Shown: positions 2,250 through 3,986 of the stretch, in pieces
Numbering within the stretch: position 1 is the stretch's first letter
How the letters are laid out: each line of letters opens with the position of its first letter
Assembly: GCA_000991245.1 (NCBI GenBank)
Contig: LBRD01000002.1
Span: 25,906-89,905 of the forward strand
DNA from: Parcubacteria group bacterium GW2011_GWC1_36_108
GTDB lineage: Bacteria; Patescibacteriota; Minisyncoccia; Moranbacterales; GWC2-37-73
Direction of reading: 5' to 3'
DNA: 64,000 nt
Made by a program: the position numbers and the translations under genes
The notes under the pieces: generated by a model
Databases searched by the model: none
The model's input: the letters and a program-made list of their open reading frames with translations, nothing else
What the model was told of the DNA's origin: nothing

Positions 2250-3986
2250 CTAAACAATGAGTTGGTCTGGGTTAACTCGTTTATTTTGGCTAGCAATAAG
2301 CCCAAATGTCATCCATAGTAGTATTTGTCCTTGCTGTATGTCCCAAAAGTAATGATCAAAAAGCATAATAAATATGAAAGCTACAAGGATGGCATTAACG
2401 AATATGGATAGTATGGTAATTGTTCCACGTGGAACATTTTTGATAAGCTTAGATAATTTAAAAATAAAATATAAAAACCCTGATAGTATAAAGATACCAA
2501 ATTCATTTAATATAAGCAAAAAAACATTATGAACTGGCTGGAATTGCCATACTTGTATGTTTGGTATTTCCATTAAATTGAAAACAAGCTGTCCTGCCCC
2601 TACTCCGATAAAAGGATGAGATAAAAACATTTCATAAGAAGCACCCAAATAAAACAGTCTTTCTCCTAGACTTTTTATTAATAATGAATTTAAATCAAGT
2701 TTTGCTATTATGACGAATAACATTATAGCTATAAAGGTAATTAATATGTTTCTTTTGAAATGTTTCACTCTAATAGAAATGTTCCACGTGGAACATTTTG
2801 TATTTTTGTATTTTTCAAATAATGTTCCACGTGGAACATTATTTATTTTCAGGATTGTGTAAAGGTAAAATAATCCCATTAATAAGCCAATAATTGCTGA
2901 TTTAGAAAAGGTTAAAGAAAGTGCGATGAATTGAATCGATATAAATATTTTCCAAATTGTTCCACCCCAGTAGAAATGTTCCACGTGGAACATTTTAAGA
3001 TATAAAAATGAAATAAGTATTGAAAATACTAAAAAGCCTCCAAAAATGTTTGGGTGAGGAAATAGTCCGTACACCCTAATATATGCCTCGCCATTTAATA
3101 TTATTTTAGCAACACCACTAATTGATGATGAAATAATGCTTTCTTTAAGCCAAAATAACCCTAGGGACTTTTGAAATATGAATTGAATAATCCCAATGGT
3201 GGCCTGGATAAGTCCTGTTATAATTATAATTAAAAACACGTTTCTTATAAATGTTCCACGTGGAACATTTACTTCTGGGTTGTTTGTAAAATTGTTCCAC
3301 GTGGAACAATTAGATTTTTCTACTAAAATATTTTTTTCAAAATGTTCCACGTGGAACATTTGCTTTAATTTTTTTATTGTGGTATTGGTTGTTTGTAAAA
3401 TTGTTCCACGTGGAACAATTGAAATTATGTAAAAATATAGAAAAATAAACTCAGTTAATTTGATAGATCTGAATATTGCTACGGGCCTATTAGTTGTCCA
3501 CAGTATCGAGACAAAAGAAAAAAAGGCTATAAACAAGGGAAATATAACGAGATAATTGTTGATAAGCAGTGCATAAGTTTTTTTAAATAGTGTGAATGTT
3601 CCACGTGGAACATTTTTTAATGTTTTTTTGTGACCGCTCCAATCTTGCCATTTAAATTGTTCCACCTGCCTACCGGACAGGCAGGCGTGGAACAATTTAA
3701 ATTTAGTGTAGTGGTTTTTTAAAAAAGATGTTATATTTGACAGTATTGATTTATTATTGTATAATATGTATAATAAAAATGTTAGAATTAAGAACAAATC
3801 AGATAGGTAGATGTATACCCCAGTGTATTCATTAAAAGAATTGTTTATTGGATGAAAATATAAAACCTTTCTAATTGACAATGTAAAGGTTGCCAGAAAG
3901 ATATAAAAAAACCAAATGTCAGGTCTTTCCTTAAAAGAATGCCACAGTTGTTTGATTATATTCATCATATACCTATTATAGCGCAC
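2250..3986 (-). CDS. O-antigen ligase/polymerase-like polytopic membrane protein carrying about 10 in-frame palindromic inserts
   Basis: 578-aa continuous ORF. C-terminal part has a Wzy_C-like GVGAGQ segment. N-terminal half contains repeated NVPRGTF / MFHVEHF / CSTWNI peptides encoded by one palindrome. Confidence 0.5.
   Translation of the reverse strand: MRYNRYMMNIIKQLWHSFKERPDIWFFYIFLATFTLSIRKVLYFHPINNSFNEYTGVYIYLSDLFLILTFLLYILYNNKSILSNITSFLKNHYTKFKLFHACLSGRQVEQFKWQDWSGHKKTLKNVPRGTFTLFKKTYALLINNYLVIFPLFIAFFSFVSILWTTNRPVAIFRSIKLTEFIFLYFYIISIVPRGTILQTTNTTIKKLKQMFHVEHFEKNILVEKSNCSTWNNFTNNPEVNVPRGTFIRNVFLIIIITGLIQATIGIIQFIFQKSLGLFWLKESIISSSISGVAKIILNGEAYIRVYGLFPHPNIFGGFLVFSILISFLYLKMFHVEHFYWGGTIWKIFISIQFIALSLTFSKSAIIGLLMGLFYLYTILKINNVPRGTLFEKYKNTKCSTWNISIRVKHFKRNILITFIAIMLFVIIAKLDLNSLLIKSLGERLFYLGASYEMFLSHPFIGVGAGQLVFNLMEIPNIQVWQFQPVHNVFLLILNEFGIFILSGFLYFIFKLSKLIKNVPRGTITILSIFVNAILVAFIFIMLFDHYFWDIQQGQILLWMTFGLIASQNKRVNPDQLIV
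2418..3705. repeat. Array of about 10 copies of the perfect palindrome AATGTTCCACGTGGAACATT (core TGTTCCACGTGGAACA) embedded in coding sequence
   Basis: Core copies at 2421-2436, 2780-2795, 2823-2838, 2977-2992, 3252-3267, 3294-3309, 3343-3358, 3402-3417, 3597-3612. Copy 3654-3700 carries a nested second palindrome. A half copy lies at 2957-2966. The palindrome has no stop codon in any of the three frames. Confidence 0.9.
3664..3684. repeat. Second palindrome family CCTGCCTACCGGACAGGCAGG nested inside a copy of the first palindrome
   Basis: The same or similar sequence recurs at 7845-7864 (CCTGCCTGCCGGCAGGCAGG) and 50728-50748. Confidence 0.8.

Follow-up and report, generated by a model that had tools for sequence, protein, structure and literature searches.

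What does a bacterial gene gain, or tolerate, when the same perfect palindrome is written into it again and again in all three reading frames? This question is raised by a gene in a 64,000-nucleotide stretch of the genome of Parcubacteria group bacterium GW2011_GWC1_36_108 (assembly GCA_000991245.1, contig LBRD01000002.1, positions 25,906 to 89,905 of the forward strand), which we call the window throughout. The gene encodes a 578-aa membrane protein resembling O-antigen ligases, and a preliminary description of the window likened its palindromes to the Rickettsia palindromic elements (RPEs) that insert in frame into coding genes. We present evidence that the palindrome is very probably parS, the chromosomal site bound by the segregation protein ParB, and that the gene is likely to accommodate a dense centromere array while remaining functional.

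The palindrome is confined to one gene and is read in three frames

The repeat is a 20-mer, AATGTTCCACGTGGAACATT, which occurs in the window 6 times exactly and 3 times as near copies with 1 to 2 mismatches that keep the palindromy (ATTGTTCCACGTGGAACAAT); its expected count in 100 dinucleotide-preserving shuffles is 0 (window GC, 36%). The 16-bp core of the repeat, TGTTCCACGTGGAACA, is perfect in 9 of 9 intact copies, all of them within the 578-aa open reading frame (ORF). No core was found outside the host gene in the rest of the 64 kb, and neither was the 20-mer, even when up to 3 mismatches were allowed. The full complement consists of these 9 intact sites, 1 copy split at its centre, and 2 half-sites, every one of which is in the host ORF (Table 1). 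This agrees with the approximately 10 copies, all inside this ORF, reported in the preliminary description; the repeat array given there was found in place, with start coordinates about 1 base off. The 9 intact sites lie within 1.2 kb at a density of approximately 1 per 130 bp and are irregularly spaced (41–359 bp). As had been noticed, the palindrome lacks a stop codon in any frame and in-frame copies use all three frames, being read as VPRGT (5 copies), FHVEH (2 copies), or CSTWN (2 copies).

Local duplication had also been proposed as a source of new copies, and two pairs of duplicated units bear this out: 3278–3330 versus 3387–3439, with 85% identity over 53 nt, and 2758–2799 versus 2955–2996, with 88% identity over 42 nt. 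The split copy is broken exactly between CAC and GTG and encodes the peptide FH-ACLSGRQ-VEQ; the entire stretch folds into a single long hairpin (−16.2 kcal/mol, z = −6.3). An Rfam scan gave no match at the palindromes. We also observed that 2761–2797 and 2958–2994 are "one-and-a-half" units, in which a half-site (TGTTTCAC or TGTTCCAC) is followed by 10 nt (TCTAATAGAA or CCCAGTAGAA) and a full site. The same pattern is present in homologs as FHVEH-x4-5-WN/GT, which suggests that sites were partly duplicated or received nested insertions at their centres.

The palindrome very probably is chromosomal parS

The core TGTTCCACGTGGAACA is, letter for letter, parS2 and parS3 of Pseudomonas aeruginosa, in which this perfect-palindrome parS has been used in mutational and segregation experiments (PMC4368675), and the P. 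putida site has the same sequence (PMC4368675, PMC7022226). Myxococcus xanthus carries 22 parS copies with the one-base variant TGTTCCACGTGGAACG (PMC7022226). The chromosomal parS consensus, TGTTNCACGTGAAACA, is described as strongly conserved among bacteria, with its copies clustering in the origin domain (PMC4368675, PMC7022226), and 9 of the 10 P. aeruginosa parS sites are located within coding sequences (PMC4368675). All 9 cores of the window fit the 16-bp parS consensus tGTTNCACGTGAAACa. Orthologs of the host gene show variants at position 5 (C/T) and position 12 (G/A) only, and both are permitted in parS.

An exact-match scan covering one genome per species found the 16-mer in at least 120 loci of very diverse phyla, many of them with 2 to 5 copies per 8 kb, and an ORF with a ParB motif (the GERRxRA box) was present in 24 of 120 loci among the matches listed. 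When metagenomes were scanned for two copies of the site 20–50 nt apart, at least 120 loci were obtained; among the matches listed, ParB was encoded in 34 of 120 (33 of these at E<1e-20 with a local hidden Markov model, HMM). The ParB genes were mostly 1–2 kb from the site pair, and many of the metagenome loci are just 1–3 kb long. The site is also clustered in other contigs that belong to the Candidate Phyla Radiation (CPR), a group of ultra-small bacteria, or are low in GC. A Kerfeldbacteria contig (L120) has 4 copies in 1.4 kb and a Patescibacteria contig (L026) has 3, in both cases in an intergenic or mixed context. Contig L205 (GC 0.27) has 7 sites in 0.8 kb (2420–3185), in non-coding DNA directly after gyrA, and both L205 and L141 (9383–9428, GC 0.26) are very AT-rich and have parS arrays in the non-coding stretch that separates gyrA from tadA-dnaX-recR. 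Dense short arrays of the site are thus not restricted to the Wzy_C gene. The preliminary description called the repeat unexpected for such a genome; the clusters of the identical site on other CPR contigs speak against this. Altogether, these results make it very probable, on sequence grounds, that the repeated palindrome is chromosomal parS, a ParB-binding centromere site.

The sites are conserved as DNA

We then considered 65 sites from 7 distinct Wzy_C genes. T0 and A15 are invariant in these sites, and neither was demanded by the search pattern. The left flank favours A-W and the right flank W-T; further out than ±4 bp from the 16-mer, the information content is approximately 0. The footprint is therefore approximately 20–22 bp, with no element body. 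In the same 7 genes, 57 of 57 VPRGT, FHVE, and STWN peptides are spelled with parS nucleotides, the sole spelling variant being the permitted TTTCAC half-site, and the codon usage of the genome predicts this spelling for 0.7%, 0.8%, and 0.14% of VPRGT, FHVE, and STWN peptides, respectively. Moreover, alignments show that one and the same loop, read in different frames, contains VPRGT in some orthologs and CSTWN in others. The invariant logo, the uniform codon spelling, and the frame switching between orthologs argue that selection is on the DNA and not on the peptide or the RNA. The preliminary description had considered that relatives might carry the same peptide segments without palindromic DNA. 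The opposite was seen: orthologs keep the peptides always with the palindromic spelling, a pattern indicative of a conserved binding site for a protein.

Signs of a functional host gene

The host protein matches the Pfam family PF04932 (Wzy_C) with an E-value of 4.5e-8 (33.4 bits, cutoff 31.7) and contains at least 12 hydrophobic helices; we thus assign it, by sequence, to the polytopic membrane proteins of the Wzy_C/O-antigen ligase superfamily. It is 100% identical to a hypothetical protein of a Candidatus Moranbacteria metagenome-assembled genome (MAG), and complete MAGs with this gene include GCA_003510565.1 and GCA_003545005.1. The ORF is intact, and the array identical, in eight independent assemblies of the population (including L121–L126 and L250–L251), and copy-number variation between strains, a comparison suggested in the preliminary description, was accordingly absent from all assemblies compared. 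Invariant among 30 homologs are the transmembrane (TM) cores and 60 alignment columns. Because the ORF is intact and these TM cores and columns are invariant, the host gene looks functional.

A sequence search of the PDB with the host protein gave no match. An AlphaFold2 (AF2) model of the protein was of low confidence (predicted local distance difference test score, pLDDT, of 59) and was used solely for loop-versus-helix placement; with this model, the top PDB fold in Foldseek was the O-antigen ligase WaaL (7TPG), a weak match (E = 0.057). All site peptides are placed by the model in non-helical or low-confidence segments between helices, and together with the homolog alignment this bears out the possibility, raised in the preliminary description, that the inserts are located in loops of the membrane protein. 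The site-bearing loops are rich in Lys/Arg and the conserved catalytic-type loops are not. According to the positive-inside rule, the Lys/Arg richness of the loops suggests that most sites are in cytoplasmic connectors.

The array is near-universal in the gene subfamily

Orthologs with 32–47% protein identity in three other genomes (L127–L129) contain 7, 12, and 12 sites. Each of these is located within the gene or at its 5′ edge, and no site was found in the 10 kb on either side of these orthologs. Synteny is kept, with cca divergently oriented upstream and gyrA, rpsA, cmk, tilS, and ftsH close by, and the order of TM segments in the host protein is collinear with that in all orthologs. Because our first homolog search was word-indexed and thereby biased to proteins sharing the parS peptides, we searched 1.84 billion representatives with an HMMER profile and without an index, which yielded 1,452 proteins at E≤1e-30. 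In the best 150 of these 1,452, at least 1 site peptide was present in 148 and at least 3 in 130 (median 6, maximum 19), and the 119 proteins among the best 150 that were new to the HMMER search behave alike. The array is thus near-universal in this Wzy_C-like gene subfamily. Its arrangement, conserved across a large CPR gene subfamily, is undescribed in the open literature searched.

When approximately 1,480 sites from 239 proteins were mapped on the family profile, they fell into six poorly conserved inter-helix loops. In five of these loops all three frames are used in comparable numbers, a pattern that a turnover of sites through insertion and duplication would be expected to produce. The sixth loop has a conserved Y-L-N-V-S-R-G/E-T before GxGxGQF (profile 382–387) and is occupied in 133 of the 239 proteins. 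Here the site, often in the form of TTTCAC variants, is in a single frame in 130 of the 133 occupied members, at no more than 50% identity. Such a fixed frame indicates an old, vertically inherited site and fits selection rather than transposition; this is probably the oldest site of the array. The protein of the window does not have the sixth-loop site and reads YLGASYEMF at aa approximately 443–451.

A centromere array within a gene: Proposed mechanism and points against it

The explanation that we judge highly probable is that a dense ParB-loading centromere array is embedded in a functional Wzy_C-like gene, with ParB binding and centromere function suggested by the identity of the sequence to parS. 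ParB dimers would bind the 16-bp parS sites, and nine of these in 1.2 kb would constitute a compact, high-capacity loading platform. By analogy with characterised ParABS systems (e.g. PMC8494293), each site would catalyse the cytidine triphosphate (CTP)-dependent closure of ParB clamps, which would slide onto the flanking DNA. The resulting ParB-DNA complex would be moved by ParA and could load SMC, in which case the locus would be the centromere of the chromosome. New copies would be generated via local duplication, surviving only if the reading frame is kept. A coding sequence can accommodate such an array for three reasons: none of the six frames of parS contains a stop codon, the sites and their A/T flanks give short polar, Lys/Asn-flanked peptides that weakly constrained inter-helix loops tolerate, and duplications persist only in frame.

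Several observations weigh against this explanation. Neither ParB nor ParA was found by motif scan and ParB HMM in the window and its flanks, approximately 94 kb of genome (the local ParB HMM was built from 20 ParBs and was also run on L121–L129 and on the flanks in L250–L252, and the flanks were extended 10 kb to the left and 10 kb to the right). Also not found in the window or flanks were dnaA, dnaN, and a DnaA-box cluster, which were searched for by tblastn with the DnaA and DnaN of contig L212 and by a DnaA-box scan. GC skew does not change sign anywhere in the window or in the adjoining 8 kb to its left, which places the origin outside the region read. At least nine tightly bound ParB dimers in a transcribed gene might, in addition, hinder its expression. 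Finally, the open literature searched contains no report on parS or ParABS in CPR/Patescibacteria. It likewise contains nothing that ties parS to O-antigen ligase genes in the sense described here, or to peptide footprints.

Wider searches were made for the missing components. A word-indexed search with the ParB consensus gave, among the matches listed, only Clostridia, Latescibacteria, and similar bacteria and no CPR ParB; viral contigs scanned for ParB yielded no CPR-like protein among the matches listed, and no DnaA-box clusters were detected in other Wzy loci. If the GC skew is reliable, the origin would be to the left, at the array's end of the window; gyrA is located approximately 10 kb to the left of the window. 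On L212, a metagenome contig with a GC content of 0.35, at least 5 parS copies are present at 13331–13872 in a tandemly duplicated unit of approximately 140 bp. That intergenic array abuts oriC: it starts some 250 bp upstream of dnaA and has perfect DnaA boxes next to it. The neighbourhood of the L212 array has gyrA, lactamase-B, and cca in common with the host-gene loci. Proximity of the array to the origin is thus suggested indirectly, and the evidence for it is this related contig.

The link between centromere and gene might also be functional and not accidental, the Wzy_C-like gene being a dedicated centromere seat in this CPR clade. We give this proposal, taken together with the steps that follow, a small chance of being correct. 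The array could have been seeded at an ancient fixed-frame N-V-S-R-G-T site of the conserved catalytic-loop region and could then have spread to cytoplasmic loops. With the centromere in the gene of a 12-helix membrane protein, coupled transcription, translation, and insertion could hold the ParB complex at the membrane, and this tether would replace the polar anchoring proteins lacking in these minimal cells. As a further option, ParB occupancy could couple expression of the surface-glycan enzyme to the replication and segregation cycle.

Alternative explanations for the array

The resemblance to RPEs drawn in the preliminary description implies selfish mobile palindromic elements, RPE-like or similar to miniature inverted-repeat transposable elements (MITEs), that transpose in frame into genes. 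Mobility of this kind is in keeping with in-frame copies in three frames that never close the ORF, with the duplicated contexts, and with small GC-rich hairpins of the same genome that do behave in this way. However, RPEs and MITEs are expected to be approximately 100 bp or more, and the unit here is approximately 20 bp without a conserved body. Copies are not dispersed, none being found beyond the host gene in the 64 kb or in the flanks read in four other genomes; the sequence is identical across phyla and equals the parS of Pseudomonas, and one site stays in the same codon register in 130 of 133 occupied members at no more than 50% identity. The likeness to RPEs could thus not be maintained, and we consider transposition very improbable. 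Inverted repeats could also be crossover sites of the shufflon type, at which a recombinase shuffles or inverts segments of a surface-glycan enzyme gene. Multiple identical short inverted repeats in a cell-envelope gene are what such a system would present, and a tyrosine recombinase gene is located elsewhere in the window (43853–44863). Yet the arrangement is identical in the eight independent assemblies, the TM segment order is collinear with all orthologs, the perfect palindrome is without an asymmetric core that could provide directionality, and no recombinase adjoins the gene at any locus examined, all of which leaves this proposal barely credible.

Two further alternatives accept a host function for the palindrome and assign it to another agent. 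The sites might act in the mRNA, as hairpins after TM segments that pause ribosomes and aid co-translational membrane insertion: a hairpin of 8–9 bp is possible at each site, and the sites come after hydrophobic helices. The sequence itself is invariant, however, not the pairing alone, and compensatory changes are absent; variants TGTTCCACGTGAAACA and TGTTTCACGTGGAACA weaken the pairing yet are allowed parS variants, and elsewhere the same motif is clustered in non-coding DNA. A role of the hairpins in membrane insertion is, in our judgement, most unlikely. The other possibility concerns the reader of the site, which could be a protein different from the segregation ParB (Noc-like, a KorB-like paralog, or a helix-turn-helix (HTH) regulator) that silences or tunes the surface-glycan gene. 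That ParB was not found in the approximately 94 kb searched, that the sites are confined to one gene, and that several TrmB-type regulators are encoded in the neighbourhood would all suit such a reader. It is nevertheless difficult to reconcile with sites that match the canonical chromosomal parS exactly, down to the variants allowed at positions 5 and 12, or with related contigs whose arrays are not in this gene but intergenic, at oriC or next to gyrA, and a regulator has no need of 9–19 operators throughout a coding region. We regard a different reader as improbable. Three simpler candidates were rejected: peptide-level repeats, which are ruled out by the three-frame use and the codon-spelling test; a restriction site, as CACGTG alone fails to account for 20 conserved bp; and a CRISPR-like array (clustered regularly interspaced short palindromic repeats), as the spacing is irregular and spacer-like structure is absent.

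GC-rich hairpins and other features of the window

The 21-mer that splits the disrupted parS copy, CTGCCTACCGGACAGGCAGGC, recurs identically at 50731–50751, in frame, in the unrelated ORF 49493–51175, where it encodes the peptide SLPTGQAGR. Adjoining this second copy is a 51-nt hairpin (50758–50808) that is related to the 42–45-nt inserts splitting two parS sites in the ortholog on L128. Dozens of family members have parS peptides that are broken at the centre by GC-type inserts of 7 aa (ACLPARQ, PACPVGR, or LPAGQAG) or 14–15 aa. From their sequence, the GC-rich hairpins look like insertion elements of the RPE type or of the repetitive extragenic palindromic (REP) type that prefer palindrome centres. 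Because the inserts repeatedly split the site centre in family members, the parS centre appears to be a recurrent target of these elements.

Three features elsewhere in the window were also observed. A Group I intron (Rfam, 73.5 bits, full length) at 11573–11827 (+), directly after tRNA-Val, apparently interrupts a tRNA gene, with flanking tRNA halves at approximately 11548–11572 and 11828–11876; ARAGORN made no call for the split tRNA. Three HTH paralogs of the AsnC/TrmB type, at 16135–17226 (−), 19211–20044 (−), and 39974–40804 (+), share a C-terminal ...ATEEDIYY, and two of them adjoin paralogous small ORFs (18617–19180 (+) and 40878–41414 (+)) that start with ...IPDERIFGRIFYIRGEKVM and ...IIENRILLLRGKKVM. 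The two HTH paralogs that adjoin a small ORF would each form, with that ORF, a copy of a repeated two-gene module. Lastly, a run of small ORFs at approximately 51179–54290 (+) has counterparts in L252 that match the Pfam family T4SS_pilin (PF18895); a cluster of pilin-like genes may therefore lie downstream of the ORF hosting the GC-rich hairpins.

Table 1. Position of the host gene, its candidate parS sites, and the GC-rich hairpins (window coordinates unless another contig is named).
Feature	Position	Strand	Remarks
Host gene	2250–3986	−	578 aa, intact ORF; annotated as 572 aa with start at 3968
parS site 1	2421–2436		TGTTCCACGTGGAACA; read as VPRGT; last loop before the final TM helices
parS site 2	2780–2795		read as CSTWN; half-site TGTTTCAC 10 nt off, at 2761–2768
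parS site 3	2823–2838		read as VPRGT
parS site 4	2977–2992		read as FHVEH; half-site TGTTCCAC 10 nt off, at 2958–2965
parS site 5	3252–3267		read as VPRGT
parS site 6	3293–3308		read as CSTWN; within duplicated unit 3278–3330
parS site 7	3343–3358		read as FHVEH
parS site 8	3402–3417		read as VPRGT; within duplicated unit 3387–3439
parS site 9	3597–3612		read as VPRGT
Disrupted parS	3658–3694		halves TGTTCCAC and GTGGAACA with the 21-nt GC-rich hairpin CTGCCTACCGGACAGGCAGGC (3666–3686) between them
GC-rich hairpin family (21 nt; ~42–51 nt)	7842–7867, 31974–32011, 51519–51546		further members in the window
GC-rich hairpin family, ortholog on L128	10682–10738, 10771–10824		long type; two parS sites split

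Implications and comparison with known systems

The class of site, parS, is known; new are the density of the array, its confinement to one ORF, and its conservation across a CPR subfamily. If our explanation is true, it offers the first concrete picture of where the centromere is located in Moranbacteria-like CPR bacteria, the cell biology of which is almost unknown. It would also provide a simple centromere marker for MAGs, namely a Wzy_C gene that encodes the peptides VPRGT, FHVEH, and CSTWN. The array would represent an extreme case of overlapping codes, in which DNA sites dictate dozens of residues in three frames and in hundreds of lineages, and it raises the question of how transcription coexists with a ParB loading platform. 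For annotation, the recurrent peptide "motifs" should be read with the caution that they would be parS footprints and not protein features.

The array shares with the parS sites of P. aeruginosa and P. putida an identical 16-bp sequence, clustering, and the intragenic location that is normal there. The Pseudomonas chromosome has four high-affinity sites over several genes near oriC, whereas the gene described here has 9–19 sites in approximately 1.2–1.5 kb, kept across the subfamily, and a cognate ParB and a position near the origin are presumed. In M. xanthus, parS sites are spread over tens of kb and lie in many genes or intergenic regions, in contrast to approximately 1 site per 130 bp within one ORF here. 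What the two arrangements have in common is the presence of many near-identical parS copies (22 in M. xanthus) in one region (PMC7022226).

In compactness the array is closer to sopC of the F plasmid, in which approximately 10–12 identical sites for a ParB-family protein act as one centromere. The sopC locus is a tandem structure of 12 units of 43 bp; it is regular, non-coding, bound by SopB, and of a different sequence, whereas the array described here is a translated one of canonical chromosomal parS sites at irregular spacing (41–359 bp). The name sopC appears in PMC3597684.

With RPEs, the array has in common that palindromic DNA lies in frame in coding genes and adds peptides to tolerant regions. 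RPEs are approximately 100–150 bp long, lineage-specific, selfish, and dispersed over many genes. The closer analogue of an RPE in this genome is the family of GC-rich hairpins, not the parS repeat, and the comparison illustrates that conspicuous palindromes repeated within a gene can belong to the host as a cis-element instead of being selfish. Unlike RPEs, the palindrome described here is approximately 20 bp long and universal in bacteria; it is limited to a single gene and subject to purifying selection.

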